A stretch of DNA of 64,000 nucleotides from Nannocystis bainbridge. Lineage in GTDB: Bacteria; Myxococcota_A; Polyangia; Nannocystales; Nannocystaceae. Positions 1,391 through 63,652 of this stretch are shown here, in pieces (positions within the stretch are counted from its first letter, which is position 1; each line of letters starts with the position of its first letter). The notes beneath the pieces are model-generated. The model had not been told where the DNA came from and made no database searches. It saw nothing but the letters and a program-made list of their open reading frames with translations. A program made the translations under genes and the position numbers. The DNA is taken from positions 576,001 through 640,000 of the forward strand of contig NZ_JAQNDL010000003.1 in NCBI RefSeq assembly GCF_028368995.1. The letters run 5' to 3'.

Positions 1391-1460
1391 GAACATGCTC
1401 CTTCGAGCATGCTCCTTCGAGCATGTCGAAACGAACATGCTCTCTTGAACATGTCTTCGA
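1391..1460. repeat. 14-bp-phased CATG-centred palindrome array (5 units)
   Basis: gaacatgctccttc/gagcatgctccttc/gagcatgtcgaaac/gaacatgctctctt/gaacatgtc; units start at 1391, 1405, 1419, 1433, 1447. Confidence 0.9.
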
Positions 1461-2318
1461 GTGAAGTACGGCGAGAAGCGATACGCGGTGAGACGACCTG
1501 ACCCTTCGAGCAGGCGGTCCTCGCCCGACGTCGTCCGCTCCTGAAGAAGGCCCCGCCGCGGATTCGGGGACCGCGCAGATCGTCTCGAGCGCGCAGCCGC
1601 TGCGACGATCGGGCTGGTTCTCGCGCGAGGGCCAGGCGCGCGATGGCCCCTCACGCGCAGATCCGTGCCCTCCGTGCGCGTCGAGCACGTCGGGATCGTG
1701 GCGTGCGCAGGGCTCGAGAACGCCTCCTCGCGCCGCGCCCGACCAGCTTCTCGGGTCGCGTGCGCCGACCCCCACCGTCGCCACCCGCCGCCCGGCCGGC
1801 GCGCCAGCAGGTGGGACGCGCTCGCCCGTACCGACCGGAGTTCAGTCGGTGAAGCCTCGCCTGCGACCGCGACGGCGGCGAAAGAAGAATTGCGAGGCTC
1901 GTCGCTCGCCGGTCGTTCTCGACCGTCGGCGGCGCACGCTGCCGGCGCAGCGGTCGAAAGCGCCGCGCAGTCTCGGCATCGCGCCCCACTCCAGCGATCG
2001 TCGACGACGCCGCGGGGTGCGGGATCGATCGCGCCGCACGTGCGAGCCTGCGCGACGCGTCTTGTTCGCCAGCGCGAGGTCGCGAGGCTCATGTCGCGCC
2101 GGTCGCTCGCGCGCCGCGTGCTCGTGCTCGCTGTCGCGGCGTCCGACGTCGTGGACCGCGGGAGCGAACTCGTGAACACAACAAACATCGAGAGCATGAC
2201 AACGCCGACGACGATCACGTCGAAGGGGTCATATCGCGCCCGCGCCGCCCGCAGCACCGGTTTTCGCGCATTGTTGCGTGATCACCAACAGATTCTCCGC
2301 GGCGATACAGTTTCTGCG

Positions 2319-4226
2319 ATGCGGTTCGGGCGGCTCTTGGCGAACGTGGCGGGCGGCGGCGTGGCGATCTTCGGAGCGCTCGCTTGCGGCGACGATTCGC
2401 CGGGTGCGATGACGATGCCGAACGAGAGCGCGACCGAGGTCATGGGCTCGACGTCGGCGCCCGCGCAGACCACCTCGGGCGAACCGTCGCCGACCACCAC
2501 CGACGCGCCCACCACCGATCCAGGCACCGACTCCACCGGCGGACAGATGACCACCGGCGAGGTCATCGGGACCACCGCGGACACCACCGAGGCGACCGAC
2601 GCGAGCAGCACCACGGGCCCCGGCGGGCCCCGCTGTCCCGCCGGCGAGCTCGCGTGTGACGGCGACGTCGCGCTCACCTGCGACGACGACGGCAACATCA
2701 TCGAGACCACGCCGTGCCCCGAGGTGTGTGTGCCGACCCTCGGTTGCGTGCTGTGCGTGCCGGGCACCGACGTGTGCGACGGCCCCGTCTCGAAGCACTG
2801 CCGCGCCGACGGCCTCGGCCTCGAGGAGAGCCTGTGCGACCCGCTGCAGGGCCTGCTGTGCGAGCCTGACAGCGGCCGCTGCGTCGGCGACTGTGCCAGT
2901 GACGCCCTGACCGCCAGCTACATCGGCTGCGACTACTACCCGACGGTCACGCCCAACATCGTCGCCGCCAACTTCGACTTCGCGGTCGCGGTCTCCAACA
3001 CCACCGACGAGCCGGCGCAGATCACCATCACCCGCGACGACGTGGTCGTCGACAGCTTCGAGGTCGCGGCGGGCGAGGTCGAGGTCGCCCCGCTGCCGTG
3101 GATCGCCGCGCTCAAGGAGCCCAAGGCGAGCACGATCGTCCAGGCCGGCGCCTATCGCCTGCGCTCCGACCGGCCGGTCTCGGTCTATCAATACAGCCCG
3201 CTCGAGTACGACAAGCGCGACAAGTTCTCCTACTCGAACGACGCCAGCCTGCTGCTGCCGACCAACGTGTGGGGCGCGGCGACCCGCGTGATCACCCGCA
3301 ACACCTTCGGCGCGCTGCCCGGCGCCTACGTCGTGGTCGCGCGCATCGACGGCACCCTGGTCGAGCTCACCCCGTCCAAGACCGGCGCGCCGGTGCTGCC
3401 GGGCGGCGGCGTCACGGCCGACGGCCACGGCCAGGCGCTGCTCAACGCCGGGGATGTCCTTTTGGTCATCTCGGGCGTGGCCGGCGGCACGCCCGATCAG
3501 GCCGACCTGACCGGCACCCTCGTCAGCGCCTCGGCCCCGGTGCAGGTGATCGGCGCTCACGCCTGCACCAACATCCCGTTCGACAAGCAGGCCTGCGACC
3601 ACCTCGAGGAGAGCAACCTGCCGCTGCAGAACCTCGCCAGCGGCTATTTCCTGACCACCCCGCTGGTCAAGCCGCCCAAGCAGCCGGCCGCCAAGAAGGC
3701 GCGCATGATCCGGATCGTCGCCACCGCGCCCGGCACCAGCCTCACCTACGACCCGCCGCAACCTGGCGCTCCGAGCATGCTCGAACAGCCAGGTGACTAC
3801 GCCGAGTTCACCTCGGCGCACGACCTGTGGATCGGCGCCAACCACCGGATCGCCGTCGCCGAGTACATGCTCGGCCAGGACGCCGGCGGCAACACCGGCG
3901 ACCCCGCCATGACCGTCGCCGTCCCGCCCGAGCTGTTCCGCACCACCTACGCCATCCACGCCCCCACCAACTACGAGAGCAACTACGTCAACGTGGTCGC
4001 CCCCACCGGCGTCACCGTGACCCTCGACGGCAACCCGGTCCCCGAGCCCGGATGGACGGCGATCGGCAAGACCGGCTGGTCGGTGGCCCGCCTGCCGCTC
4101 GCCAACAAGGGCGACGGTGACCACCGGCTGACCTCCGACCACCCCTTCGGCGTGCAGGTCTACGGCTACGGCCAGTACACGAGTTACTGGTACCCGGGCG
4201 GCCTCAACCTCGCGCCGCTCCCCTGA
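2319..4226 (+). CDS. IgGFc-binding-protein N-terminal-domain lipoprotein with Thr-rich linker and Cys-rich region
   Basis: Lipobox GALAC; SYIGCDY, YSNDASLLLP, CDHLEE, GDPAM, YGYGQYTSYWYPGG motifs typical of the family; start moved to ATG 2319 inside ORF 1665..4226. Confidence 0.85.
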   Translation: MRFGRLLANVAGGGVAIFGALACGDDSPGAMTMPNESATEVMGSTSAPAQTTSGEPSPTTTDAPTTDPGTDSTGGQMTTGEVIGTTADTTEATDASSTTGPGGPRCPAGELACDGDVALTCDDDGNIIETTPCPEVCVPTLGCVLCVPGTDVCDGPVSKHCRADGLGLEESLCDPLQGLLCEPDSGRCVGDCASDALTASYIGCDYYPTVTPNIVAANFDFAVAVSNTTDEPAQITITRDDVVVDSFEVAAGEVEVAPLPWIAALKEPKASTIVQAGAYRLRSDRPVSVYQYSPLEYDKRDKFSYSNDASLLLPTNVWGAATRVITRNTFGALPGAYVVVARIDGTLVELTPSKTGAPVLPGGGVTADGHGQALLNAGDVLLVISGVAGGTPDQADLTGTLVSASAPVQVIGAHACTNIPFDKQACDHLEESNLPLQNLASGYFLTTPLVKPPKQPAAKKARMIRIVATAPGTSLTYDPPQPGAPSMLEQPGDYAEFTSAHDLWIGANHRIAVAEYMLGQDAGGNTGDPAMTVAVPPELFRTTYAIHAPTNYESNYVNVVAPTGVTVTLDGNPVPEPGWTAIGKTGWSVARLPLANKGDGDHRLTSDHPFGVQVYGYGQYTSYWYPGGLNLAPLP

Positions 4227-4321
4227 CGGCCCACTCGGAGCGCAAACTTCGGACATCTCCTGGCCTGCACGGCGGTCCAGGCAGGTGAATTCATGCCCAC
4301 CAGCGAGAGGATTTCGAACTC

Positions 4322-5968: not shown

Positions 5969-6225
5969 GAGGGGACCATAGCAGTGACGCACGGCTCGGC
6001 GATATCCGCCACGGCTCCGGAGGTCGCGACAGTGGCAGGTCCGCCGCCGGTGTACGGCCCGGGCCGTACCTGTCACTCGGTGCCGACCTTGCTCGCCGGG
6101 GCGGGTGAGGCCCCTACGTGCTCAAGGCGTCCGCCCGCCATGCGGCCTGGCGACCGCGCTACGGGCCATTTGCCAGTACACCCGCGACGGGTACCCGGGC
6201 GGCATCGCCTCTGAAGTTTCCGAAG

Positions 6226-6305
6226 GGACATGCCCTCACGGACATGCCCCATGCGTCATGCCCCATCGGACATGCCCCATCGGACATGCCCTCGCGGACA
6301 TGCCT
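6226..6305. repeat. 14-bp-phased palindrome array (6 units) abutting the purQ stop
   Basis: ggacatgcc-type units at 6226, 6240, 6254, 6268, 6282, 6296. Confidence 0.92.
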
Positions 6306-7129
6306 TAGCGCGACGCGATCGCCCGCACGCCGCCGGCCAGCAGGTGCAGGCCGAGCCCGTGCTCCGGCAGCGTCCCGGCCTCGCGCTGGGCGATCCAGTG
6401 CGGGTGGTTCTCCGGGTACAGGTACGCCTCCGGGTGCGGCATCAGCCCGAACACGCGGCCGCTCGGGTCGCACAGGCCGGCGATCCCACCTGGCGAGCCG
6501 TCGGGGTTGTCGGGCCAGCGCTCGGTCGGCGCCCCGGTCTCGTCGGCGTAGCGGACCGGGATGAGATGCCTGTCCTCGAGGACCTGTCGCAACGGACCTG
6601 TCTCGAAGACCAGCTTGCCCTCGCCGTGGCGGCTCGGCAGCTCGATGGTCGGCGGCAGGTCGCGGGTGAACACGCACGGGCTGGCGCGGTCGACCGCCAG
6701 GCGGACCCACGCGTCCCAGTAGCCGAGGCGGTCGTTCATCACCAGCGAGACCCGCTGCTGCAGCCCGGGCTCCAGGCCCGGCAACAGGCCCAGCTTGACG
6801 ATGGTCTGAAAGCCGTTGCAGATGCCGAGCACCAGCCCGCCGGCCTCGACGTGGCGCTGCAGCCGTTCGCCCATGCGGTAGCGCAGGCGGTTGGCGAACA
6901 CCCGGCCGCTGGCGATGTGGTCGCCGAAGCTGAAGCCGCCGATGAACACCACCAGCGGGTGGCCGGCCAGCGCGTCGTCGTCGGCGATCGCGTCGGCGAC
7001 GTGGCGCGCGGTCACCCGGGCCCCGATCGTCTGCAGCGCGGCGCACGTCTCGGCCTCGCAGTTGAGGCCGTAGCCGGTCAGGACCAGCGCGCGCACCTCG
7101 GCGGCGCCCTCGATCGCCAGCGGGTTCAT
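6305..7129 (-). CDS. purQ: phosphoribosylformylglycinamidine synthase glutaminase subunit
   Basis: GYGLNCE, GGFSFGD, LGICNGFQ (catalytic Cys), NPDGS, GLMPHPE; ATG 7129 overlaps the purL stop (ATGA). Confidence 0.95.
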   Translation of the reverse strand: MNPLAIEGAAEVRALVLTGYGLNCEAETCAALQTIGARVTARHVADAIADDDALAGHPLVVFIGGFSFGDHIASGRVFANRLRYRMGERLQRHVEAGGLVLGICNGFQTIVKLGLLPGLEPGLQQRVSLVMNDRLGYWDAWVRLAVDRASPCVFTRDLPPTIELPSRHGEGKLVFETGPLRQVLEDRHLIPVRYADETGAPTERWPDNPDGSPGGIAGLCDPSGRVFGLMPHPEAYLYPENHPHWIAQREAGTLPEHGLGLHLLAGGVRAIASR

Positions 7130-10100
7130 CGCTGCACCTCCTGCGCCCGCGCCGGCAGCGGCGCCGGTGGCCCGTGCAGCGCCGCCGGGCGGAACCGTTC
7201 GCGCAGCGCCGCCGCCGTCAATTCGACGATCGTCTGGGCTCCACGGCGCACGCGGAGCCAGCCGCCGCCGTCCTCGCCCGGCGCCGCGACCTGCCCCAGC
7301 GCCTGCAGCCCGTGCCCGCCGAGCCGCGCGGTCAGCTCGCCCGCGGCCGCCGGCTTGCACGTGAAGACGATGCGCCCGGTGCTCTCGCTGAACAGGAACT
7401 CGGCTGGCGTCAAGGACATGTCCTCCGGGACCGGTCGCAAAAGCTCATCGGTGACGGCGACCTCGAGCCCGAGCTCGCCGGCCAGCGTCATGTGGGCCAG
7501 GGCGACCGCCAGGCCGCCGCGGCCGGCGACGTGGGCCGAGCGGACCAGGCCGGCGTCGCGCGCCGCGGCGAAGGCGGCGTAGCGGGCCGCCGCGGCCGCG
7601 AGGTCGGTCGTCGGCACGCCGTGCAGGACGAGCCCGCGCTGGCGCGACAGCTCGCTGCCGCCGAGGTGCCGGCCGGTCGGGCCGAGCACGAACACGAGGT
7701 CGCCAGCGGCGATCGGCGCCAGGTCGAGGGCGCGCCGCACGTCGGGCATCTGACCGATCACCGAGACCAGCAGGGTCGGCGGGATCGAGATCTTCACGCC
7801 GCCGAGGTGGGCGTCGTTCTTCATCGAGTCCTTGCCGCTGACGAGCGGGACCCCGAACGCCTCGCAGGCGGCCCGCAGGCCCTCGCAGCAGCGCACCAGC
7901 TGGGCCAGCTTGTGCTCGCCGTCGGGCGTCTTGTCGCTCTGCACCGGGTCCGGCCAGCAGAAGTTGTCGAGCGCCGCCAGCCGATCGATCCGCGCCCCCG
8001 CGCACAGCGCCCGCCGCACCGCCTCGTCGACGCACGCGCGCGCCATCGCGTCGGTGTCGAGGTCGCCGTAGTGCGGGTGCACGCCCTCGGCCAGGATCAC
8101 GCCCTCGGGACGCAGGTGACGCGCGCGCATCACCGTCGCCGTCGACGGCACGTCCTGACGGGCCCCGACCCACGGCTTGACCACCGACAGGCCCTTGACC
8201 TCGTGGTCGTAGCGGCGCCCCAGGTGCTCGTGCGAGGCCATGTTCGGCCGCACCAGCATGTCCAAGAGGTCATGGCCGATCGAACCTGGCGCATCGGCCA
8301 GGCGCTGCTCGCCGAGCACCGCGGCGACCGCTGCCGGCGCGCTCTCGGGCCGCGCCGGCGGGCTCCAACGGGCCCGCAGCGGCACCCGCGGGGTGCCCTC
8401 GTGGAGGAACTCGAGGCCCAGGTCGAGCACCGGCTTGCCGGCCCAGGTGGCGCGCAGCCGGCCGCTGCTCGTGAACTCGCCGAGCGGGGTGGCCTCGACC
8501 TCGCGCCGGCGGGCCAGCTCGAGCAAGGCCTCGAGCCTGTCCTTCGGGACAGCCAGCGTCATGCGCTCCTGAGCCTCGGAGATCAGGACCTCCCACGGCA
8601 TCAGCCCGGGGTACTTGAGCGGCGCGAGCGCGAGGTCGATGTCGGCGCCGCCGGTGAAGGTGGCCATCTCGCCGATCGACGACGAAAGGCCGCCGGCGCC
8701 GTTGTCGGTGAGGCCGCTGTAGAGCCCGAGCTCGCGCGCCTCGGTCAGGAAGTCGGCGACCATCTTCTGCGTGATCGGGTCGCCGATCTGGACCGCCTGC
8801 ACCGGCGACGACTCGTCGAGCTCGACGCTCGAGAAGGTGGCGCCGTGGATGCCGTCCTTGCCGATGCGCCCGCCGAGCATGACGACGACGTCGCCGGCGC
8901 GCACGACCTTCTCGGCGGTCGGGCGCCCGGCCGAGGTCACCGGCATGACCGCGACGGTGCCGCAATAGACCAGCGGCTTGCCGGCGTAGCGGGCGTCGAA
9001 CAGCTCCCAGCCGCGGCTGTAGGGGATGCCGGATTGATTGCCGCCGTCGATGACGCCGCGGTGCACGCCGTCGCGGATCTTCCGCGGATGCATGAGCCCG
9101 GGCGGCAGCTGGCCGGCGAAGTCGGGCTCGCCGAAGCAATAGCCCCACACGTTGGTCAGCAGGTCGGCGCCGAGGCCGGTGCCGAGGCTGTCACGATTGA
9201 CGCCGACGATGCCGGTCATGGCCCCGCCATACGGGTCGAGGGCCGACGGCGAGTTGTGCGTCTCGACCTTGTAGACGAGGTGATCGGCGTCGCTGAAGCG
9301 GACCACGCCGGCGTTGTCGTGGAACACCGAGACGAGGAACGGCGCGTCGCCGTCGTCCGCCGCCCGGGCCGCCGCGATCGCCTCGGTGGCCCCGCGGATG
9401 TACGTGCGGAACAGGCCGCGATCGATCGTCCGCGTGGCGCCGTCAGGGTCGGTGTACTCGATCGGCGCGGCGAAGATCTTGTGCTTGCAGTGCTCGCTCC
9501 ACGTCTGCGCCAGGCACTCGAGCTCGGCGTCGGTCGGGTCGCGGCCGAGATCCACGAAGTGGCGCTGAATGGCCCGCATCTCCGTGAGCGTCAGCGCGAG
9601 CATGCCCTGCGTGCTGATCCGCATCAGCGTCGCGTCGTCGGCCGCGCCCAGCGCCACGGTGGCGACCACCGCCTCGTGGACCCCGCCGGCCCGCGGCACC
9701 GCGAACGCCTGCGGCCGCGGCGAGCGCTCGAGCGTCGCCCGCTCGATCAGCGGGTTGTGCAGCTCTCGCGCCGCTCGCTCGGCGTGGGCCTCCTCGAGGC
9801 CCCAGATCGCATAGGTGGTGCCCGTATAGACCTGCCCGCGCAGGGCCCGGCCGAGGCAGTCCTCCGCGGCTCGCTTGACGCTGGTGCCGACGCTGTCGGT
9901 CACGCCGGGGCGAAAGCCGATCGTCAGCAGCCAGGGATGGCCGGCGGCCCCCGCGGGCGCGCCGAAGTCGTCGGCGAGGGCGCCGATGGCCCCGACCTCG
10001 GCGACCGGATCGGTGAGCGCCGCGAGCACCTGCCGGGCCTCGTCCGGGCTGATGTCCAGATCGAGCCAATAGACCTTGCGCGACCGCAGGCCGGTCGGGT

Positions 10101-11093: not shown

Positions 11094-11111
11094 GCTGCTC
11101 GCTGTCCCGCG

Positions 11112-11163
11112 GAGCATGTCCTCCGCGCCATGCTCGTCAGGACATGTCCTGAAGCGCATGTGC
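11112..11163. repeat. 14-bp-phased palindrome array (4 units)
   Basis: Units at 11112, 11126, 11140, 11154, between convergent genes. Confidence 0.85.
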
Positions 11164-11211
11164 TCTCGGTCGTCCGCGACGCGTCCGCCCCCCTGACCTC
11201 CCCCGCGCACG

Positions 11212-17882: not shown

Positions 17883-17922
17883 CAAAGCTCCGTCTCCGTG
17901 CCCGTGTCGCCGCGCATCCTGT

Positions 17923-17960
17923 TTACATGCCCCATGGGTCATGTCCCCAAGGACATGTCC
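17923..17960. repeat. 14-bp-phased palindrome array (3 units)
   Basis: Units at 17923, 17937, 17951; perfect TGTCC-CCAA-GGACA at 17942. Confidence 0.85.
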
Positions 17961-18016
17961 TGAAGCATCCTCGGCCCCCGCGCCTCGCCGACCTGTCCCG
18001 AAGTATCATCGCCGGC

Positions 18017-20146
18017 TCACTTGCCCTTGCCCTTGCCGGTGTTGGTCTTCGGCTTGCCCTGCGGCTCGACGTGCTTGTCGCCGCGCGCGCCCTTGCCGGT
18101 GGTCGCCGCGGCCCCGCCCTCGACGGCCTGCTTGCTGGCCTTGAGGACATCCTGCCACACCTTCTTGCGACCGGCCGGCAGCGCCGCGAGGCGGCCCGTC
18201 ACCTCGGCCTCGACCGCCGGCCAGGTCTTGCCCTGGGCCAGCACCGTCGCGAACGCGGCCTCGATCGCCTCCGCGTAGTGCTTCGCCACATCGACCTTCG
18301 CCACCGCGCCGGCCTCGCTGAGCAGCTTGCCGCTGGCGACGAACTTGTTCTTGCAGGCCGCGTCGACCTGGGCCCGCGCCGCCGTGGCCGCCGCGATCTC
18401 GGCGTCGACCTCGGCCAGCCCGGTGCCCGCGTCGCTCGCCGTGGCCGCCAGCGGCAGGCCCGACCACAGGTCGCGCAGCTGCACGACGAGCAGCTGCGCG
18501 TGCTTCTGGCTGGCCCGCAGCGCGTCGCCGAGGTCCGCGTTGGCGTCCGCCTGGGCCTGCGTCTTGCCGGCCGTCATCTGCGCGCACAGTGCAACCTGCG
18601 CGACCGTGAAGCGGCGCAGATCGAGCGCGAGCTGCCGGCCCGCCGCCGCCGCGTCGGCCTGTCCTTCGGGACCGGTCGCCGCCCGCCCGAGCGCCTTGAG
18701 CGGCTCGGCCCCGCGACCCTCCTGGCGCCGGCTGACCTCGAGGTCCGCCTCGACCGCGGCGGCCGTGTAGCCCGCCCCGCCGGCCGCGAGGATCTCGGCC
18801 AGCCGCGCCGGCCCGGCGCTGTAGCCCCCGGCGGCCCCGTCGACCGTCAGCGCCGGCCCCTTGTACTTGCCGGTCTTGGCCTGCAGCGGCTGCTCGGCGG
18901 CCTTGGGCGCCTTGAGCAGCGCGAACGTCACCCGCGTCGGTCCGACGTAGCTGGTCTTCACGCTCTTGCCTGCCAGCGTGAATTTGGTCTTGTCGGTCAG
19001 CTCGCGCCCGCGGATCTCGCCCTCGACGCCCTTGCCTTCGGGACCTGTCCAATAGGACATGGCCTCCACGACAGGCGTCTTGATCACCGCGACCGGCTTC
19101 TTGCTGGCGAACTCGCGGCCCTGCGAGACCGCGACCAGCGGCTGGTCGGTCGGCGCGTCGTCGGGCAGCGTCAGCGTCACCTTCGACTTGCTGGCCGGCG
19201 CCTCGGGCTGCAGACTCACCTGTCCCAAGCGCCAGGTGGTGACCGCGTCGAGGTTCTTGCCGCTGATCTTGAGCGTGCCGGGCGCGCCGACCTCCTTGGG
19301 CACCGTCGTCAGCCCCGGCGTCGGGTGGACCGTGAACGCCACCGCCGAGCCCTTCTTGCGCGCCTCGGCCTTGAGGTCGCCCGACTTGGCGCCCTTGGCG
19401 ATCGTCACCGTCGCCTTGGTCTCGCCCTGCTCGCCGGCCTTGAGCGGCTTGCTGCCGAGCTTGAACTTGGCCGCCTCGAGGTGCGCGCCGGTGAGCGCCA
19501 CGCTGTCGCCCTCGAACGCCGCCGTCGGGCTCACCGCCGTCAGCGCCGGCGCGTAGAAGATCTCGTAGTCCTTCTTCAGCGCCGCCTCGCCGCCGACGCT
19601 CGTCACCGCCAGCGGCCCGGTGGTCCCCGCCGGCGCGGTGAAGCGGAGCGACGTCGCCCCGAGCTCGTCGACCTTCACCGGCGCGCCCGCGAGCGTCAGC
19701 GTCGTCACCCGGTCGAGGTTCTTGCCCTTGAGCGTCACGACCTCGCCGGGCGCCGCGAACTTCGGCGACGCGCTCGTGAGCCCCGGCGCCTTGACGAAGC
19801 CGGTGACCGCCAGCTCGGCGACCTTCTTCTTGGCCCGCTTGAGGAGCAGCTTCTTGGCGCTCTTGGTCTTGAGCGGCACGGTCGCGGAGATCGAGCCGGC
19901 CGTGATCTTCACTTCCTCGAGCGCGATCGCGTCGAGCATGACGACGTCGCCTTCGACGAAGTCCGTGCCGGTGATCGTGATCGTGTCGCCGGCGCCGAAC
20001 TCCGCCGGAGTCACGGCCTGCAGCGTCGGCGCGGCGGAGGCCTCCGCGGGCGTCTGCTCGGCCCGCACCGGCGCCGCGGCGGCGAGCAAGATCGCGACCC
20101 CGATCGCCGCGCCGATCACGTTCGCTCCAGAACCCGACCACGTCAT
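18017..20146 (-). CDS. secreted IPT/TIG-repeat protein with C-terminal helical domain
   Basis: Signal peptide; about 5 repeats of the type PxLxxVSP...GxxVTLxGxNL. Confidence 0.8.
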   Translation of the reverse strand: MTWSGSGANVIGAAIGVAILLAAAAPVRAEQTPAEASAAPTLQAVTPAEFGAGDTITITGTDFVEGDVVMLDAIALEEVKITAGSISATVPLKTKSAKKLLLKRAKKKVAELAVTGFVKAPGLTSASPKFAAPGEVVTLKGKNLDRVTTLTLAGAPVKVDELGATSLRFTAPAGTTGPLAVTSVGGEAALKKDYEIFYAPALTAVSPTAAFEGDSVALTGAHLEAAKFKLGSKPLKAGEQGETKATVTIAKGAKSGDLKAEARKKGSAVAFTVHPTPGLTTVPKEVGAPGTLKISGKNLDAVTTWRLGQVSLQPEAPASKSKVTLTLPDDAPTDQPLVAVSQGREFASKKPVAVIKTPVVEAMSYWTGPEGKGVEGEIRGRELTDKTKFTLAGKSVKTSYVGPTRVTFALLKAPKAAEQPLQAKTGKYKGPALTVDGAAGGYSAGPARLAEILAAGGAGYTAAAVEADLEVSRRQEGRGAEPLKALGRAATGPEGQADAAAAGRQLALDLRRFTVAQVALCAQMTAGKTQAQADANADLGDALRASQKHAQLLVVQLRDLWSGLPLAATASDAGTGLAEVDAEIAAATAARAQVDAACKNKFVASGKLLSEAGAVAKVDVAKHYAEAIEAAFATVLAQGKTWPAVEAEVTGRLAALPAGRKKVWQDVLKASKQAVEGGAAATTGKGARGDKHVEPQGKPKTNTGKGKGK

Positions 20147-23472: not shown

Positions 23473-23526
23473 AAGAGCATGTCTCTCCGGGCATGCCCTT
23501 CGGGGCATGTCTCCGAGGACATGTAT
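23461..23526. repeat. 14-bp-phased palindrome array (5 units) overlapping the peptidase stop
   Basis: Units at 23461, 23475, 23489, 23503, 23517. Confidence 0.9.
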
Positions 23527-23698
23527 CTCTATAAAATCTCCGAAGCGCTGGCCTGCTCCGATGGGGCTGGTCGGTATGGCTACGAGCTCGAGATTCCGTC
23601 AGCCTCGCCCGCCGAAATCATCCGAGGCCGCGAGACCGGGCCCCACGCTCGAGCCCGATGGACATCCCTGCCTTGTCCTGCTCTCCTGTGTGCTCGCC

Positions 23699-38998: not shown

Positions 38999-39052
38999 GT
39001 ACATGTCCTCTCGAACATGCCCATCGAGACATGCTCTTCAGAGCATGTCCCG
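38999..39052. repeat. 14-bp-phased palindrome array (4 units) between convergent genes
   Basis: TGY at 39004, 39018, 39032, 39046, each preceded by CA. Confidence 0.88.
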
Positions 39053-39055
39053 AAC

Positions 39056-43685: not shown

Positions 43686-45443
43686 CTAGCCCGGGGCGAA
43701 CATGTCCCAAAAATCACACTGCTGCGCGCGCACGCCATTGAATAGACCCGGCGGCTCGTCGAGCAGCGCGCCGTTGTCGTCCGCCGCCACGTACGGCGGC
43801 CAGGTCAGGTCCGCGCCGCCCGGATCGCCGGTGGCCGCGAAGCGGGCCCACGCCGCCTGCAGTCGCTGCGAGATCGCCAGGTCGTCCGCGTTCGGCTCGT
43901 ACATCGCCGGCTCCGGGAGCACCGCCCCCCAGGCGGCGAACACGTAGATCAGCTCGAGCCCGTGGAACGCCGCCTTGGTGGCGTTCGGCAGCGCGTCGTA
44001 GCCGTCGTAGGCGAAGTGGTAGCGGAACACCGGCGCGTCCTGGCCGGCGTCGGCCGCCCGCGCGGCCCGGCGCGCCCCGCAGATGAACTTGAGGTCCGAC
44101 GTGAGCGCGACGTAGGCCGCCTGCCCGTCGTCGCCGTAGTCGCCCGCCGGGTACTGCGCCAGCACCATCGCCGCCAGCGGCCCGAACGTCGCGTGCACCA
44201 GCCCCTCGTACTGCGCCACCGTCAGCGGCGGCACCCCCTTGGCCGTCTCGTCGGCGTTGGCCCCGAACACCAGCGGCACCGCGTTATGTGTCCCTTCGGA
44301 CATGGCCTCGAGGGCAGGTTTCGGGATCACCACCCCGTCCACGTGCGGCCCCCAGCCCTGCCCGAGCGCCGCCACGTCGGGGTAGCCGTCGGGCTGCAGC
44401 GACAGGATATCGGCGATCGCCAGGCCGCGCAGGCACGCCGCTGCATCGGGCACCTCCGCGCAGCCCGAGGCCGCGAGCCACGGCCCGGCGATGTCGGCCG
44501 CGTACTTCGCCGGCGCCCGCTCGTTGCACGAGCCGCTCTGCACGATCGCCCGCTGGAACAGCCCCGCCGCCCGCGGCGAGCCGATCAGGCTGCACGTGTT
44601 CACCGCCCCCGCCGACTCGCCGAACAGCAGCACCCGCTGCGGATCGCCGCCGAACCCGGCGATGTTGTCCTGCACCCACCGCAGCGCCAGCACCTGGTCG
44701 AGCAGCCCGTAGTTGCCCGACACCTGCTCCCGCGACTCGGCCGCCAGCGCGTCGGCGGCCAAGAAGCCGAGCGCGCCGAGCCGGTAGTTGAGCGTCACCA
44801 CCACCACGTCCTGCGCGGTCGCCAGCGCCGCCCCGTCGTACAGCGGATCGTCGCTGCCGCCGGTCGCGTTGCCGCCGCCGTGGATGAACACCAGCACCGG
44901 CCGCTGCCCATCGCCGGGCGCCGGCGTCCACACGTTGAGCGTCAGACAATCCTCGTCGCCGAGCATCGCCACGACTTGCCCCTGCCCATCCTTCTCGATC
45001 TGCGGGCAGCGCGGCCCGAGCTCGCTCGCCGGCGTCGGCCCGGCCACGCACATGCGCGGCTCCGGCGGGCGAAACCGCAGCGCGCCGACCGGCGGCTCGG
45101 CGTAGCGGACCCCGCGAAACGCCACGACCTCGGCCAGCTGCTCACCCGCGAGCGCCCCGCCCGTGGTCTTCACGATCGTCGGCCCCGGCGCGACGTCGGC
45201 CCCGCACCCGCTCGGCCCGACGCCCGTCGTGTCGGTCGACGCCTCGCCCGTCAGCGCGGTCGTCGTGCCCGCCGCGGTCGAATCACCGGAAGTCGTCGGT
45301 ACGCCCGGATCGTCGGAGCCCCCGGGCGCGCTCGCCGTCGTCGACGCGATCGCCAGCGAATCATCGGTCCCGCTGCTCGAGGCCGCCGTGCTGCACCCGA
45401 GCACCGAGGCCACCACCGCCGCCCACCCCTCGCGCCTCACCAT
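43686..45443 (-). CDS. carboxylesterase type B lipoprotein
   Basis: Lipobox VLGC; EDCLTLNVW, HGGG, NYRLG, FGESAG, AFHGLEL. Confidence 0.93.
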   Translation of the reverse strand: MVRREGWAAVVASVLGCSTAASSSGTDDSLAIASTTASAPGGSDDPGVPTTSGDSTAAGTTTALTGEASTDTTGVGPSGCGADVAPGPTIVKTTGGALAGEQLAEVVAFRGVRYAEPPVGALRFRPPEPRMCVAGPTPASELGPRCPQIEKDGQGQVVAMLGDEDCLTLNVWTPAPGDGQRPVLVFIHGGGNATGGSDDPLYDGAALATAQDVVVVTLNYRLGALGFLAADALAAESREQVSGNYGLLDQVLALRWVQDNIAGFGGDPQRVLLFGESAGAVNTCSLIGSPRAAGLFQRAIVQSGSCNERAPAKYAADIAGPWLAASGCAEVPDAAACLRGLAIADILSLQPDGYPDVAALGQGWGPHVDGVVIPKPALEAMSEGTHNAVPLVFGANADETAKGVPPLTVAQYEGLVHATFGPLAAMVLAQYPAGDYGDDGQAAYVALTSDLKFICGARRAARAADAGQDAPVFRYHFAYDGYDALPNATKAAFHGLELIYVFAAWGAVLPEPAMYEPNADDLAISQRLQAAWARFAATGDPGGADLTWPPYVAADDNGALLDEPPGLFNGVRAQQCDFWDMFAPG

Positions 45444-46953: not shown

Positions 46954-47199
46954 GCCGGGCAATCCTGCGCCAGGCTACCACGTCGCCGCCCCACCGGTGA
47001 GTTGTCACCTTACCCACATATCACACCTTAACTTACCAAACCCGCCAAACGCCCCTGCGACCGCCTGGAGGCCCGAATCGGCAGCATCACCCCTTCATCA
47101 AACTCGCCCGCGACACCCACGGCCAGCCACGAGGCGCGACCCCCGACCCGCCCGTCGAGCGCCGAGAGTACAGTCGAAAATTACCGGCGAGATCCAAGA

Positions 47200-47280
47200 G
47201 TACATGCTCGAAAGGACATTACCTCGAGAACATGTCTATCATAACATTTCCCCAAAGACATGCCCTCGAAGACATGTCCT
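47200..47280. repeat. 14-bp-phased palindrome array (6 units)
   Basis: NRACAT units at 47200, 47214, 47228, 47242, 47256, 47270 with unrelated spacers. Confidence 0.9.
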
Positions 47281-47370
47281 TATGACCTTACCCTCTCCCG
47301 CATCGTCCACGTCGTCGGCAGCGCGCGAGCATGCCTTCATGCATCACCGGCCGACCTCGAGACGCCCCCG

Positions 47371-49581
47371 TCACCGGTCGCCCACGCACACCGCCGCCCC
47401 GTGCCACGGCGTGCAGCGCCCGTGCGCGCACGGGTTGTCCGCGTCGCACGGCGAGAAGCAGGCGTTGCTGGCGAACGCGTGCACCTGTCCTTCTGGACAC
47501 ATCGGTGCGAACAGCGGATCATGGCGCACGCACCCCAACAGCGCCTCGCACCCGTCCTTCACCTTCGCCGCCTGCCCCGCCTTGCACACGGCATACAGCG
47601 CGGGGTCGCCCCACATCGCGTCGCACGTGTCGCAGCCGCACAGCTCGTCCGGCGGCTGCGTGAACGTCAGCCGCCGCTCCGGCTCGTCCCGCAGCGCCAC
47701 CACCTCCGTCACCAGCCGCGCCCCCTGCCAGCGGATCCGCAGCTCGCCCGCCCCGTCGAGCCGGTGCAGCTTCGCGGTCAGCGGCGCGCCGATCGCCAGC
47801 GGCGTCACCAGCGTCATCCCCGTCGCCGTCGTCATCCGCATCGCCGCCGGCGAGCCGCCCTCGATCACCTCGATCTCGCGCACCGGCTCGACATCGTCGG
47901 CGGCCGACAGCCGCAGCTTGAGCCACCCGCCGAGCTGCTGCACCGTGCCCGTCGCCCACGCCGCTTCGCCGAGCTCGACCGCCTGCGCCCCGTCCCACGC
48001 CAGCTGCGTCGGCGCGTAACGCATCCCTTCGGGCAGGCCCGGCGCGGGCACCGGCGGCGGAAGTGGCCGCGCCAGCCGCTCGCCCAGCGCCTCGGCCAGC
48101 GCCGCGTGCCCGCGCGCCGTCATGTGGATGTCACGATCGAGGAACGCCCCCGGCTGGGCCGCGCGCAGGGCCGCGGTCGCGTCGAAGCTGCGGATCCGCA
48201 GGTCCTCCGCGTTCGCCACCAGGTCACCGAGCAGCACCTGCGACGGCCGCATGTCGGGCCCCTGCTCGACCCCGTACTTGGCCCACTCGCCGGCGTCGAC
48301 CTGCACGTCGAACGGCAGCGCCACCACCACCAGCTCCGCCCCGTGCGCCGCGCACAGCGCCTTGAACTCGGCCAGGTACGCCGCGAACACCGACTGCGGC
48401 CGCGACCGCGGCGCGCTGCGCTCCAGCTCGGCCAGCACCGCCTCGCGCGAGTCGACCAGCGTCGCCGCGGCCGCCTGCAGCTCGCGCAGCCGGGCCGCCT
48501 GCTGTTTGGCGAACTTGCGCTGCTGCTTCTTGTAGTCGTCGCGCCGCGCCACTGCCTCGCGGATCAGCTCCGCCGTCACCTCGAGCGACCGCCCGCTCTC
48601 CGCCAGCTTCTCGTTGCTGACGATGTCACCCGGCCGACCCGCCGCGATCTGCTGCCAGAACTCCGACGGCTCGGCATACAGCAACTCGTCCTCCAGCGCC
48701 CGCAGCTGGTCTCGCTGCTCGCGCAGCGGCTGACCGAGCGCGTCGACCTGCGCGCGCGAGGCCCCGCGCCGCACCTCGTGCTCCGCCGCCACCGCGGCCT
48801 GCTGCGCCTGCGTAAGCACGCTCGCGTGCACGAGGTCCTGCCAGCCGCCCTCCGACGGCGTCCCCGGATCGAGCGGCCGCCCCCCCGCGTCGTCGCTCTC
48901 GGGCGCGCCCGCCGAGCCGCGCGCGTGCAGCCACCGGCGCACCGCGTACACCGCGTGCGAGCGCGACATCAGCCATGCGCGCCCCGGGAACTGCGGCATC
49001 TCGGCGGGCGCCGTCTCGCGGCGCACCGCCCAGCCGTCCCACACCGCGTGGCGCTCGGTGTTCGGCCGCTCGAGCTCGAACGGATCGTTGACGAAGTTGA
49101 GCACCACCACCACCGTCGCCGGCTTGCGCGACGTCAGCAGCTCGCGCGCCACCTCGAGGTACTCGCGCGGCCCGTAGGTCGGCACCCCCGCGTTGATCAC
49201 CGGCCGACCTGTCCTTTCGGCCAGCCCCACCGAGAACGTCTCGTCGTCCGCGACCCCGAGCCCGAACACCTGCGAATCGCCGACCACCACGATCTCGCCC
49301 GCCTGCGGCGCCGGCCACTCGGGCCCGCGGTAACCGCTGGCATTGACGTGAATCGAGGTCCGCGGGTTGGGCGGCAGCCGGAACTCCATCGCCGCCCCCG
49401 GCTGCAGCCGCACCCCGAGCTGCGGATCGGCGACATAGAAATTCACGTGCGGAAATGCCCACTCGTCGCGCATCGCGAATGCGCACTCGGTGGCCACCAG
49501 CCCCAGCCCCAGCCCGACCGCGATCTGGCCCGCGATCACGAGCCTTCGACGACGAACAGCGGGGCGCGGATCGGTGGCCAT
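47371..49581 (-). CDS. SGNH/GDSL (AlgX/AlgJ-like) hydrolase or O-acetyltransferase with helical insertion and Cys-rich C-terminus
   Basis: N-terminal TM; NASGYRG, VVGDSQVFG, INAGVPTYG, ND, DIHMTARGH. Confidence 0.82.
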   Translation of the reverse strand: MATDPRPAVRRRRLVIAGQIAVGLGLGLVATECAFAMRDEWAFPHVNFYVADPQLGVRLQPGAAMEFRLPPNPRTSIHVNASGYRGPEWPAPQAGEIVVVGDSQVFGLGVADDETFSVGLAERTGRPVINAGVPTYGPREYLEVARELLTSRKPATVVVVLNFVNDPFELERPNTERHAVWDGWAVRRETAPAEMPQFPGRAWLMSRSHAVYAVRRWLHARGSAGAPESDDAGGRPLDPGTPSEGGWQDLVHASVLTQAQQAAVAAEHEVRRGASRAQVDALGQPLREQRDQLRALEDELLYAEPSEFWQQIAAGRPGDIVSNEKLAESGRSLEVTAELIREAVARRDDYKKQQRKFAKQQAARLRELQAAAATLVDSREAVLAELERSAPRSRPQSVFAAYLAEFKALCAAHGAELVVVALPFDVQVDAGEWAKYGVEQGPDMRPSQVLLGDLVANAEDLRIRSFDATAALRAAQPGAFLDRDIHMTARGHAALAEALGERLARPLPPPVPAPGLPEGMRYAPTQLAWDGAQAVELGEAAWATGTVQQLGGWLKLRLSAADDVEPVREIEVIEGGSPAAMRMTTATGMTLVTPLAIGAPLTAKLHRLDGAGELRIRWQGARLVTEVVALRDEPERRLTFTQPPDELCGCDTCDAMWGDPALYAVCKAGQAAKVKDGCEALLGCVRHDPLFAPMCPEGQVHAFASNACFSPCDADNPCAHGRCTPWHGAAVCVGDR

Positions 49582-51616: not shown

Positions 51617-51685
51617 CACCTGTCCCGCGAGACACCTCGACATGGCCCACGGGACAGCCCATCAAAACATGTCCCGAGAGACAGA
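51617..51685. repeat. cluster of 14-bp gapped palindromes after the SDR stop
   Basis: TGTCC-CGCG-AGACA at 51621; TGTCC-CGAG-AGACA at 51670. Confidence 0.75.
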
Positions 51686-51700
51686 TCGCGTGAGCCCGCC

Positions 51701-52180: not shown

Positions 52181-52191
52181 GACGCCCTCGC

Positions 52192-52228
52192 CCGCATGTC
52201 CCCGAGGACATCTCCCGACGACCATGGC
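52192..52228. repeat. 14-bp-phased motif array (3 units)
   Basis: Units at 52192, 52206, 52220; perfect site 52197..52210. Confidence 0.8.
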
Positions 52229-52253
52229 CGCCACCCGCGCGCCCGAAAGCTCG

Positions 52254-53533: not shown

Positions 53534-53668
53534 CTGCGTCTGCAGATCTTCCCGCCGAGGCCGCCGCGAGGGTCGACGCCTGCTCGACGCGGCGTCGGCT
53601 CGCCGGTCGATCGTCCGCGAGCCGGCGACCTCGGCCGCGCCGGTCCGCGGCCCCCGCCTGTCGCGCCG

Positions 53669-53720
53669 GAGCATGAATCTTCGGACATGTCCCTTCAGAC
53701 ATGCCTGAAGGGTCATCCCT
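53669..53720. repeat. 14-bp-phased palindrome array (4 units)
   Basis: Units at 53669, 53683, 53697, 53711. Confidence 0.85.
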
Positions 53721-57262: not shown

Positions 57263-59344
57263 ATGGACAACCGACCCTTGCCGCCCTGGTTGCCGCTGCT
57301 CCTCGGGCTTCTCGCCGGAATCGCCGTCCTCGGCGGTCTCGATCCTGTCTATCCCGGCGCCATCGCCTTGCTGACCGGCGCCGCCGGTTACTACATCGGC
57401 ATGCAGGCCGACAAGCAGCTCGCGCGGGCCGGCGACGAGCGGCAGGCCCTGCGTGAGGTCGAGGCGCGCAGCCACCAGTCCGAGCGCGCCCTGCACGACG
57501 CCACCGCCCACGCGCAGAGCCTCCAGACCCAGGTCCAGGAGCTCGCCGGGCGCCTGCAGAATTGCCAGGCCCACGGTCAGGAGCTCGCCGCTCGTCTGCA
57601 GGCCGACGCCCATCAGCTGCGCAACGCCGAGCTCGAGCAGCGCAGCCTCACCGCTCGCCTGCAGGAGGTCACCGCGCGCGCCCAGGAGCAGGCCGGGCGG
57701 GCCCAGGCCGCCGAGGTGCGGCTCGCCGATCTCGAGACCCGCCTGCAGGACGCCCAGTCCGAGAACCGCGCCCTGCAGCAGAGCGTGCGCGGCGGCGTGC
57801 CCGAGCTCGACGTCCTGCGCAACGAGCTCGAGACCGTGCGCCGCGGCGCCAACGAGACCCGGCACCGCCTCACCAGCGAGCTCGAGGCCTCCCGGCGCGA
57901 GCAAGAGGCCACCGCCGCCGATCTCGGGCGGATCCAGGGCCGCCTCGCCGAGGCGCTCAACCAGCGCGACGGCGCCGTGCGCGACGCCGAGGAGCTGCGG
58001 CGCATGCTCGACGAGGGCGGCCTGAGCTCCCGGGGCATCGACGCCGAGGCCACCGCGCTCATGCAGGAGCTGTCCGAGGGGCTCGGCACCACCACCGGCG
58101 CGCTCGAGGAGACCTCGCAGGCGCTCAACAACGTCAACGGCGGCCTCAAGGGCATCGCCGACAACGTCGAGCTGCTGGCCAGCAACGCCGAGGAGAGCGC
58201 CAGCTCGATCCTCGAGATGGCCGCCGCCAACGACGAGGTCGCCGAGAGCATGTTGAACCTCGCCGCCAGCGTGCAGGAGACCGCCACCTCGATCGAGGAG
58301 ATGACCTACTCGGTCAAGGAGGTCGCCAAGAACATCGAGGCGCTGAGCTCCACCGCCGAGGAGACCTCGCTGGCGATGACCGCCATGGACACCTCGATCC
58401 AGCAGGTCGAGAACAACGCCAACGAGACCGCCGGCCTGTCCGAAGAGGTGGTGTGGGCCGCCGAGGGCGGCGTCGACGCCATCAACCAGACCATCGAGGT
58501 CATCAACCTGATCAAGACCTACTCGGCCGACGGCGTGGCCGTCATCAGCCGCCTGGGCGAGCGCATCAGCGAGATCGGCAAGATCCTCAGCGTCATCGAC
58601 GACGTGTCCGAGCAGACCAACCTGCTCGCGCTCAACGCCGCCATCATCGCCGCCCAGGCCGGCGAGCACGGCAAGGGCTTCGCCGTCGTCGCCGACGAGA
58701 TCAAGGACCTCGCCGAGCGCTCCGCCAGCAGCACCAAGGAGATCGCCGACATCATCAAGGCCGTCCAGCGCGAGAGCCGGAACGCCGTCGAGGCGGTGCA
58801 GCGCTCGAGCAAGTCGGTCGACGACGGCGTGCGCGTCAGCCACCAGGCCGAGGACGCGCTCAAGCGGATCTCCGACGCCGCCCGCCGCTCCACCGGCATG
58901 GTCCGCGAGATCGCCCGCGTCGCCGTCCAGCAGACCCAGAACTCCAAGCAGGTCACCGACGCCATCAACGTCGTCGCTACCACCGTGCAGCAGGTCGCCA
59001 CCGCCACCAGCGAGCAGGCCCGCGGCGCCGAGCAGATCATGCGCTCGGCCGAGAAGATGAAGACGATCACCCGCCACGTCGAGCGCTCGACCCAGGAGCA
59101 GACCCGCGGCTCGCGCCAGATCACCCGCGCGATCGAGACGATCAGCGAGATGGTCAGCCAGCTCAGCAAGGCCCACCGGGCCCAGACCCAGGGCGCCGAC
59201 CAGATCGTCGAGGGCCTCAAGTCGGTCAAGGAGGGCATGACCTACCAGCGCAGCCTCTACGAGCAGCTCAGCTCGAGCGTCGGCGTCACCCCGCCGCGCC
59301 GCCAGCCCTCGCGCAACAGCAAGCCCGGCCCCGCGCGCATGTGA
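57263..59344 (+). CDS. methyl-accepting chemotaxis protein with two N-terminal TM segments and a long coiled coil
   Basis: [43 protein letters not shown]. Confidence 0.95.
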
Positions 59345-59350
59345 CCTCGA

Positions 59351-59411
59351 GGGCATGTCCGCGGGGACATGCCCGTGGGGACATGCCCCTTCGCGCATGT
59401 CCCCGGGGACA
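59351..59411. repeat. 14-bp-phased palindrome array (5 units) right after the MCP stop
   Basis: Units at 59351, 59365, 59379, 59393, 59407; perfect sites at 59356 and 59398. Confidence 0.92.
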
Positions 59412-60296: not shown

Positions 60297-61037
60297 GTGT
60301 TCGGCATCGGCATCACCGAGATGATCCTGGTCGGGCTCGTCGCCTTGATGCTCTTCTCCCCGCGCGAGCTGCCCAGCCTGATCAAGACCCTGGCCGGCAT
60401 CTACGGCAGCATCCGCCGCACGGCCGAGCAGTTCCGGGCCCAGGTCATGGAGGCCGACGAGCTGCGCGAGCCGATCGAGGAGATCCGGGCCGCCTACCAC
60501 GGCACCAAGGCCGAGCTCGACGGGGCCCGCGACGTCGCCCGCCGCGAGCTCCAGCGCGCCCGCATGGAGGTCGTCAAGGCCCAGCAGAAGATCAACGAGA
60601 TCGCCCGCGAAGAGGCCAAGCGCCCGCCTGTCCCTGGGGACATGCTCGCCGGGACAGGTCCTTCGACGCAGGTCTCTTCGGCCAGCCAGGCCGTCGCCGC
60701 CGCCTCCGCTGCCACGGCCGCCGCCTCCGCGGCCACGGCCGCTGCCTCCGCTGCCACGGCCGCCGCTGCCGCCTCGTCCGCCGCCGCCGAGGCCCCGACC
60801 GCCACCGCCTCGACCGTCGCCGCCGAGGCTGCCCCGCGCGCCGTCCCGGCCGCCGCCACCGTCTCGACCGTCGCCGCCGAAGCCGCCCCGCGCGCCGTCC
60901 CGGTCGCCGGCACCGTCTCCTCCGCCCCGCCCGAGGCGGTCCCGCGCGCCGTCCCGGTGCCGGGCGCCGTCCCGGTCGAACCCGCCTCGCGCGTGGCCGC
61001 GCCGGGCCGCCCCGTCAACGAGCGTGACGTCGCATGA
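60297..61037 (+). CDS. tatB: twin-arginine translocase subunit TatB-like, with Ala/Pro repeat tail
   Basis: FGIGITEMILVGLVALMLFSPRELP; directly upstream of tatC with ATGA overlap. Confidence 0.85.
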   Translation: MFGIGITEMILVGLVALMLFSPRELPSLIKTLAGIYGSIRRTAEQFRAQVMEADELREPIEEIRAAYHGTKAELDGARDVARRELQRARMEVVKAQQKINEIAREEAKRPPVPGDMLAGTGPSTQVSSASQAVAAASAATAAASAATAAASAATAAAAASSAAAEAPTATASTVAAEAAPRAVPAAATVSTVAAEAAPRAVPVAGTVSSAPPEAVPRAVPVPGAVPVEPASRVAAPGRPVNERDVA

Positions 61038-63321: not shown

Positions 63322-63353
63322 CCGACCTCGCGGCCTGCCGCGCCTGACTCGAG

Positions 63354-63432
63354 GGACATGCCCACCCGGGCATGTCCCTTTTCGCATGTCCTCGCGAACA
63401 TGTTCGCGAGAACATGTCCGAACCGCCATGCG
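63354..63432. repeat. 14-bp-phased palindrome array (6 units)
   Basis: Units at 63354, 63368, 63382, 63396, 63410, 63424. Confidence 0.92.
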
Positions 63433-63456
63433 CTGCAGGCCTTGAACTGCCGCCCG

Positions 63457-63589
63457 GACCTGTCCGCAGAGCCAGCCGACAACCCGAACTCCCGCCTTCG
63501 ACCTGTCCGCAGAGCCAGCCGACGCCCTCGCGCCGACCCGATGAGCCCCCGCGCCCGACCTGTCCGCAGAGCCAGCCGACGCCCTCGCG
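63457..63589. repeat. three copies of GACCTGTCCGCAGAGCCAGCCGAC
   Basis: Copies start at 63457, 63500, 63557. Confidence 0.85.
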
Positions 63590-63652
63590 TCGAGCTCGAT
63601 CCTCTGACCTGCCCCCGAGGACAGCCAGCCGCGAGATGCCCCGTGCAGCGCT

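Follow-up and report, generated by a model that had tools for sequence, protein, structure and literature searches.

A highly iterated, phased 14-bp dyad at gene ends in Nannocystis as a candidate array of protein-binding sites

What purpose is served by a short gapped palindrome that recurs along a whole bacterial chromosome and is often polymerised into arrays of strict period? The question is raised by a stretch of 64,000 nucleotides (positions 576001-640000 of its contig, hereafter the window) of a Nannocystis genome, G000, which comprises 11.05 Mb in 5 contigs at 71.5% GC. The element is a 14-bp dyad, TGTCC-N4-GGACA in its perfect form and TGYCY-N4-RGRCA in its degenerate form. It is real, abundant, positioned and constrained, and across species its half-sites are kept while its spacers are not. 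We give a probability of roughly 45% to the reading that its units are double-stranded sites for a putative cooperative dimeric protein marking the ends of transcription units, in the manner of repetitive extragenic palindromes and bacterial interspersed mosaic elements (REP/BIME).

A pattern search of the window returns 14 perfect units, whereas 100 dinucleotide shuffles average 0.01 and never exceed 1; the 14 comprise all 13 sites listed in the preliminary description of this DNA and one more at 755. Genome-wide, when the gap length k is varied over 0-30, k=4 yields 1987 perfect sites and the other gaps 0-32, except for k=18 (379), which stands out because 18 = 4 + 14. The degenerate form occurs 4173 times at k=4 versus 41-172 times at other k within 0-12, which is the single-gap enrichment that had been anticipated, and the everted arrangement GGACA-Nk-TGTCC peaks at k=0, 14 and 28 (956, 638 and 275 copies). 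Units with at most one mismatch number 6245, where shifted gaps yield about 100-340, and about 3500 more with two mismatches lie above background; the genome holds roughly 6,000-10,000 copies of the element. These are found on all 5 contigs at 10-108 units per 100 kb, with a broadly even density along each, as befits the chromosome-wide system that had been proposed.

The phase of the arrays is strict. Successive units with at most one mismatch are spaced by 14, 28, 42, 56, 70 and 84 bp (485, 274, 165, 58, 28 and 16 cases), and the occasional 13- or 15-bp period reported from the window does not appear genome-wide among them. Distances between CATG tetranucleotides show the predicted autocorrelation, with peaks at 14, 28, 42 and 56 bp (3736, 2073, 1586 and 751) over about 70-300 at neighbouring distances, and 2074 CATG-phased arrays of the form (RRRCATGYYY-N4)n contain 2-16 cores each. 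The outer edges of arrays are complete 14-mers with cTG...CAg as outermost bases; the repeating unit is therefore the 14-mer dyad, with RRRCATGYYY arising where two of them meet. Units stand singly or abut without a linker. CATG is the best-conserved core of arrays, and single units are mostly flanked by CTG...CAG rather than CATG.

Within the unit, T1/A14 and G2/C13 are nearly invariant and the central T3/A12 is almost free, so that the outer TG/CA, about one helical turn (~11 bp) apart, are the most conserved bases. The centre of the spacer is AT-rich in spite of the composition of the genome. Information content stops at +/-3 nt, where the flank consensus reads R-C-(A/C) ... (T/G)-G-Y; the R at -3 and the Y at +16 of single units are symmetric yet unpaired (A-T plus G-C 161; A.C plus G.T 171). 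Of 1670 pairs of neighbouring units, 75 (4.5%) have the same spacer, compared with 1.1% of random pairs. Most arrays are therefore not recent tandem duplications, as the preliminary description maintained from the unlike spacers of neighbouring units, though a small minority are. Some arrays show higher-order periods of 28 and 42 bp, and the decamers within one array tend to be asymmetric. The accompanying view that phase and half-sites are conserved and the sequence between them is not holds throughout: spacings are multiples of 14 only, arms are kept and spacers vary.

The most informative property, absent from the preliminary description, is the position of the element 3' of genes together with its depletion from promoter gaps. 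Units pile up 0-60 nt past stop codons and are distributed flatly relative to starts. Among gaps of 60-400 nt, the element is present in 482 of 687 convergent ones (70%), 430 of 1505 co-directional ones (29%) and 68 of 536 divergent ones (13%), the last class containing promoters only, and the largest arrays occupy entire convergent gaps from stop to stop. A unit lies at most 80 nt downstream of 1608 of the 6511 protein genes called. For tRNA genes, a unit is found within 150 nt downstream in 9 of 102 and upstream in 3 of 102. The first unit often incorporates the TGA stop (TGACA|TGTCC or TGACC-N4-GGACA, as at 23461-23475 and 59342-59356 of the window), and arrays therefore begin at or overlap the last codon; at single-base resolution, stop-to-unit distances peak at +2, -3, +11 and +16. 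In a test based on flanks, coding signal is missing from both sides of 814 of the 1987 perfect units, compared with 15% of random points, and 390 (~20%) are truly intragenic, with the same coding frame on both flanks, compared with 53% of random points. The called coding sequences hold 700 perfect units versus 15-32 after shuffling of synonymous codons.

Both the presence of the element and its arms are retained among relatives. Arrays follow the same genes in five related genomes with 85-95% identity in coding DNA, differing there in spacers and in number of units, and the sequences at orthologous array sites are unalignable apart from the arms. Array presence, scored as a unit within 160 nt, was compared over a 330-kb stretch with 185 gene ends, of which 65 could be anchored in one relative (G005) and 64 in another (G007), and agreed strongly in both comparisons. 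In the first comparison 21 ends have units in both genomes, 4 in G000 only, 4 in G005 only and 36 in neither; in the second the corresponding counts are 15, 8, 6 and 35. Identities of arms, flanks and spacers are 0.930, 0.896 and 0.837 for intragenic units (n=101 alignments) and 0.916, 0.853 and 0.755 for intergenic units, in the alignable subset alone (n=50). At intragenic sites of the window, the 4-5 relatives with an alignable locus keep the arms entirely or with a single base changed, and their spacers vary.

Of the 73 genomes of the order, 23 contain the 18-mer CATGTCC-N4-GGACATG; a reversed control pattern gives 0-1. The 18-mer is present in all 11 genomes of Nannocystis at 2-369 copies: 180-369 in the six large ones, G000 included, and 2-50 in five smaller, mostly fragmented ones. 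Two sister genera carry it in 5 of 5 genomes (2-6 copies) and 7 of 7 genomes (1-43 copies), and it is absent from 50 genomes of 14 other genera in the order; high copy number is confined to Nannocystis. Among the species representatives of GTDB, the double unit appears in 78 stretches, 75 of them titled Nannocystis, Nannocystaceae or Myxococcales. The eight low-copy sites examined in the sister genera lie after ddl, between fabG and fabF, after a 761-aa open reading frame (ORF) without a Pfam match, in the interior of mltG (two sites, orthologous), in the interior of one ORF and in low-GC regions (two sites, one of them between DUF4215 genes). The first two of these places share an identical 20-mer, GCATGTCCGTATGGACATGT (L003 3984-4003 and L004 3956-3975), although they belong to two genera and are not orthologous; the match might be coincidental or might hint at mobility.

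The evidence on whether the units are read as DNA or as RNA is mixed and leans towards DNA. The main rival account, possible though somewhat unlikely, is that they act in transcripts, as hairpins with a stem of 5-7 bp and a loop of 4 nt in the 3' untranslated regions of mRNAs, serving as terminators without a T tract or as blocks to 3' exonucleases of the kind shown for REP, and working in both directions between convergent genes. Such a role would suit the position right after stops, the coverage of convergent gaps, the depletion of promoter-only gaps, the far greater share of protein-gene ends than of tRNA genes served, and the presence of TTCG, CTCG and CCGA among the commonest N4 loops. 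It would also suit a genome almost without hairpin-plus-T terminators: a scan for these detects 99 in 2342 3' regions, 67 antisense to them and 32 in 2219 5' regions, and something else must therefore end or protect transcripts. The arrays are not intrinsic (Rho-independent) terminators, which combine a GC-rich hairpin with a T/U tract; no T-run follows the last unit (n=529, with a T fraction of at most 0.29 beyond position 3), and the arrays are 57% GC. The only Rfam matches in the window are two tRNAs.

Several observations tell against pairing being what is conserved in the arms. In 305 units ascertained only through both neighbours, and so free of bias from their own sequence, Watson-Crick pairing equals independence at all 5 pairs. 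The variation seen in the 3736 CATG-ascertained units is mostly uncompensated: the central pair is non-Watson-Crick in 29% of them (631 C.A and 470 T.G), T.G is overall as depleted as C.A, and G.T is not favoured. A wobble pair depleted like a mismatch points to dyad symmetry rather than to RNA pairing. Of the pairs that changed between species, 39 of 57 break pairing, 12 turn wobble and 5 are compensated, and it is the outer pairs that are most conserved and the middle pair least. Per nucleotide, array RNA exceeds 3' regions lacking units in stability by only about 10% (-0.389 vs -0.352) and lies barely above ordinary GC-rich 3' sequence, and the sense and antisense folding of arrays differ by 0.8 kcal/mol, which is not significant (p=0.07, n=543). 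Abutment at zero nucleotides has no obvious rationale in RNA, and at least 390 copies are located inside genes and conserved there.

An oligomerising dimeric DNA-binding protein is consistent with this anatomy and would be its best fit: the unit is a 14-bp dyad with its outer conservation one turn apart, an AT-rich centre and a free spacer, units abut, and arrays end on whole units. A putative dimer would read the unit as double-stranded DNA, with one monomer per TGTCC arm, and would make its strongest contacts with the outer TG/CA, which would share a face of the helix. Neighbouring dimers in an array would be in contact, each rotated by ~120 degrees relative to the last, so that three units would span four turns, and together they would seed a short filament of protein where the transcription unit ends. 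The location suggests a job at these ends, most likely that of a barrier, an insulator, a supercoil-handling site or an RNA polymerase roadblock; we infer both the protein and the job. A bolder version, which we think unlikely, is that most transcription units end with such a filament on phased dyads in place of the lacking intrinsic terminators, the filament acting as a genome-wide roadblock, insulator or supercoil barrier right after stop codons. Protein-mediated, DNA-encoded termination is familiar from mTERF in mitochondria and from RNA polymerase I, and the filament, if true, would be a bacterial counterpart of these.

Several observations weigh against the units being sites for such a protein. 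A modest excess of Watson-Crick pairs is present across N4 in the 3736 units (1807 vs 1612 expected; C-G 385 vs 287; T-A at the C/G pairs 193 vs 128 and 110 vs 73 expected), as compensation within an RNA stem would leave, with no arm covariation across CATG or to the next-but-one unit. In co-directional 3' regions the sense strand has 190 T.G against 127 C.A at the central pair, and 414 against 340 when three pairs are taken together; the dyad is also more symmetric in gaps between convergent genes, which are read on both strands. These two features hint weakly at RNA, which predicts both; transcription-linked mutation bias could also yield the strand asymmetry. Exchanging arms between arrays costs 1.7 kcal/mol in folding energy relative to the real arrays (500 of 689 arrays tested). 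The scarcity of units after tRNA genes is odd for a general polymerase roadblock. The gene calls are crude, being long ORFs with a GC3 > GC1 > GC2 pattern (6511 genes, ~77% of the genome) whose stops are sound and whose starts are unreliable, and the identities given for intergenic units come from alignable sites alone.

The search for a reader likewise speaks against such a protein: none was found near the motif sites searched, namely the sister-genus sites, divergent gaps and the largest array. None of the eight low-copy sites of the sister genera adjoins a regulator, as an operator beside its own regulator gene would. From the 54 genes that flank 27 unit-bearing divergent gaps, 20 encoding fewer than 300 aa were tested; the only regulators among them are one TetR-family and one ECF sigma-factor gene, neither otherwise linked to the motif. 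The largest array, of 16 cores, has neighbours of HflX, YbjQ and PALP type: it lies between genes for a YbjQ-like protein and a pyridoxal-phosphate-dependent enzyme, downstream of hflX. This longest array (G000:C3:1237916-1238185; locus L124 3916-4185) spans 270 bp and is unusually AT-rich and degenerate.

Two further explanations dispense with a reader. The repeat might be selfish or driven by mutation, without a function for the host, growing by slippage or through a mobilising enzyme, renewed by biased conversion and surviving at harmless 3' ends, as REPINs or miniature inverted-repeat transposable elements (MITEs) do. Lineage-specific expansion (180-369 copies of the 18-mer in the large Nannocystis genomes and none in 14 other genera), the few clear recent tandem copies with their identical spacers and 28- or 42-bp periods, the asymmetry of decamers within an array, such as tandem copying would produce, and the tendency of arrays to fill whole convergent gaps and swallow the TGA stop all sit well with this. 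We nevertheless judge it improbable, for arms stay intact while spacers are randomised, whether units of one array or of different species are compared, orthologous gene ends retain the element, and intragenic copies are conserved as well. A 14-bp unit is also far below any known mobile unit, and a six-frame search of the 90.5%-complete genome gave 0 matches to the Y1 transposase family of RAYTs (PF01797, Y1_Tnp), which was matched in control genomes; mobility by a RAYT is rejected, and so is a RAYT-type REP family, fragments of a known MITE or REP family having been named as a refuting possibility in the preliminary description. A drive may renew the arms alone, and the copies may well have come from a selfish element or a drive, as argued for REPs. 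Very improbable is a product like HIP1 of a CATG-centred DNA methyltransferase and very-short-patch repair. CATG is indeed the array core that is best conserved, copies lie in coding and non-coding DNA alike, and the genome has one D12-class adenine methyltransferase gene; that family is however present in 69 of 73 genomes of the order and therefore does not track the motif. CATG is only mildly over-represented (observed/expected 1.24), with most CATGs outside the motif and most single units flanked by CTG...CAG, and the N4 dyad, the 14-bp phasing and the 3'-end bias would be left unexplained.

Other candidates were rejected on simpler grounds. The half-sites alone (TGTCC 12351 and GGACA 11418 copies genome-wide, ~4000 of each inside units) are close to a composition estimate of ~10,000; the enrichment belongs to the dyad and not to the word, unlike DNA uptake sequences (DUS/USS), in which a single non-palindromic word is over-represented by itself. 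Carriage by phages is not indicated by 14 viral contigs of unrelated GC content with one isolated unit each, which is about chance by rough estimate. CRISPR repeats measure 23-47 bp and their spacers 26-72 bp, compared with a repeat of 10 bp and a spacer of 4 bp here. The consensus sequences of LexA (CTGT-N8-ACAG), PadR (ATGT-N8-ACAT) and p53 (RRRCWWGYYY) resemble the motif; the copy number and location of the element argue against a regulon of any such kind. RRRCATGYYY with short spacers is formally equal to a half-site of the p53 response element, which we take as coincidence, and the literature matches for GGACATGTCC are p53 or unrelated eukaryotic papers only.

No prior description of the motif in bacteria was found in the literature searched, in which supplements and subscription journals are not covered, and neither the genome note on N. 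exedens nor a REP survey mentions it in the portions available; to this extent the motif is undescribed, as had been supposed. Cooperative dimeric repressors are known to bind arrays of abutting symmetric boxes in variable number, each dimer touching its neighbour and the half-sites being conserved, as with the met-boxes of MetJ, Fur boxes, omega heptads and BldC repeats. The element shares with MetJ- or Fur-like operators the abutting symmetric boxes, conserved half-sites and free spacers, but those comprise few sites at promoters with a period of 7-8 bp, compared with thousands after stops at 14 bp. Such operators have a cognate protein and lie at promoters, whereas here no protein was found near the motif sites searched and units are depleted from divergent gaps. 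HIP1 of cyanobacteria is an ungapped octamer without arrays or 3'-end bias. It is likewise a highly iterated, lineage-specific palindrome found also in coding DNA, whereas the dyad described here has a gap, forms phased arrays and is strongly biased in position. The initial comparison in spirit with HIP1 or REP therefore stands for REP, the much closer analogue by virtue of the position 3' of genes, and fits HIP1 poorly.

With REP/BIME the element shares high copy number, short palindromes 3' of genes and between convergent genes, regularly spaced clusters, lineage specificity and vertical inheritance. In the accessible text of two papers, REP/BIME elements are binding sites for several proteins and stabilisers of mRNA (PMC2817692, PMC3733652), and the latter gives GTAG or CGTC as the tag at the REP end. 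No such tag is found here, where the flanks follow the consensus given above. REPs are also imperfect palindromes of 20-40 bp that form a stem-loop, are strictly extragenic and are joined by linker motifs, and REPIN-RAYT systems have a cognate RAYT gene; the Nannocystis unit has 14 bp with weak covariation of its arms, 390 of its 1987 perfect copies are intragenic, with examples conserved in orthologous genes, abutment is strict, and the genome has no PF01797 match. The coverage of convergent gaps is very high compared with REP/BIME. This remains the closest known kind, yet size, tag, the extragenic rule, stem covariation and the link to RAYTs fail. GapR of Caulobacter, a protein linked to gene 3' ends and to the handling of positive supercoils (PMC8510090), might be a functional analogue; it reads overtwisted AT-rich DNA without a defined motif, in contrast to the precise motif here. 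The binding of gyrase at BIME-2 invites the same comparison. CdbA of Myxococcus xanthus is a nucleoid protein with a GC-rich, sequence-specific site present in hundreds of copies inside and between genes, which in the available text is a direct repeat 4 bp apart, with no arrays or 3'-end bias reported (PMC7156744), and was rejected because the present motif is a dyad.

Features of the window are collected in Table 1. They were delimited by a CATG-phase scan (2-6 cores at 14 or 28 bp), Tandem Repeats Finder and direct reading. The scan gives 17 arrays, starting at 1384, 6219, 8247, 11105, 17916, 23454, 27644, 29558, 35792, 37230, 37327, 38992, 47193, 52185, 53662, 59344 and 63347. About 18 arrays of 14-bp period had been announced for the window, and most of the places are true; 25996, 26661, 28512, 51621 and 52192 are exceptions.

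Table 1. Units and arrays of the 14-bp dyad, and tRNA genes, in the window (window coordinates; strands of neighbouring genes given as + or -)
Position	Feature	Context and remarks
755..768	perfect single unit, CTGTCC...GGACAG type	intragenic
1384..1463	array, 5 CATG cores at 14 bp	variant GAGCATGCTC/GAACATGYTC; downstream of + gene ending 1271
6219..6312	array, 6 CATG cores	GGACATGCCC-N4, higher-order period 28 bp
8538..8551	perfect single unit	intragenic
11105..11170	array, 4 cores	occupies convergent gap: + gene ends 11093, - gene ends 11286
17916..17967	array, 3 cores	includes perfect unit 17942; between two - genes
19046..19073	perfect unit and one degenerate	intragenic
23454..23533	array, 5 cores	begins at stop codon of + gene ending 23472
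24411..24424	perfect single unit	within gap 23472-24586
25996..26025	two degenerate units	TGTCT-N4-AGCCA, TGTCT-N4-GGCAC; at end of + gene ending 26004
26631..26750	42-bp (3 x 14) higher-order repeat	2.9 copies with motif units
27644..27697	two or three degenerate units	between two - genes
28512	essentially single unit	
29558..29611	two units	directly 3' of - gene with stop at 29623
35792..35853	perfect units 35804 and 35840, one degenerate	3' of - gene ending 35874
37228..37364	two arrays (37228-37269, 37327-37364)	convergent gap 37213-37464; includes perfect unit 37256 of the preliminary description; orthologous arrays in 3 other species, spacers different
38990..39057	array, 4 cores	occupies convergent gap 38972-39056; arrays at same place in 3 other species
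44289..44316	perfect unit	intragenic; arms intact in 4 of 5 related species that align
47193..47286	array, 4-5 units, unrelated spacers	3' of - gene ending 47371
47486..47499	perfect unit	intragenic; arms identical in 4 aligned of 9 related loci, spacer different in each
51621..51697	three units 22 and 27 bp apart, unphased	occupy co-directional gap 51612 to 51701
52185..52236	perfect unit 52197, essentially single	12 nt past stop at 52180; also downstream of - strand tRNA
52299-52385 (-)	tRNA gene	Rfam
53423-53496 (+)	tRNA gene	Rfam
53662..53713	array, 3 cores	
59342..59411	array, 4 cores, two perfect units	begins at stop of + gene ending 59344
60629..60656	perfect unit and one degenerate	intragenic
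63345..63440	array, 6 cores, unrelated spacers	24 nt past stop at 63321

An asymmetric relative of the unit, TGTCC-N4-GACCA with its complement, has 294 copies genome-wide versus 1-26 at other gaps. Its orientation in co-directional gaps is sense in 47 cases and antisense in 20, which pairing does not explain. Tandem repeats of 43-50 bp in up to 6.5 copies, at 59477-60107 and 63461-63623 of the window, each carry a relative of this kind (CCTGTCC-N4-GACCAG or -AGCCAG), and similar repeats of 50-60 bp are present at the region orthologous to 35804 in three related species. In-frame coding tandem repeats at 25557-25773 (period 15-60 nt), 33434-33641 (15/45 nt) and 60690-60978 (9-54 nt) are unrelated to the motif. 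Across the genome, CTAG is strongly avoided (observed/expected 0.20), and AATT (3.1) and TATA (2.2) are over-represented despite the GC content of 71.5%.

REPs have been known for forty years, and their host function is still debated. The Nannocystis element is an extreme and unusually clean case: its 14-bp unit keeps a strict phase, each kilobase holds about one element, 70% of convergent gaps are covered, position and half-sites are conserved across species while spacers are free, no RAYT was found, and the genome almost lacks classical terminators. A single organism thus lets two questions be tested, namely whether DNA or RNA is the form in which such repeats are read, and how very GC-rich bacteria delimit their transcription units. 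For annotators of Nannocystis genomes, which are mined for natural-product gene clusters, the motif further offers a practical means of marking where genes end.

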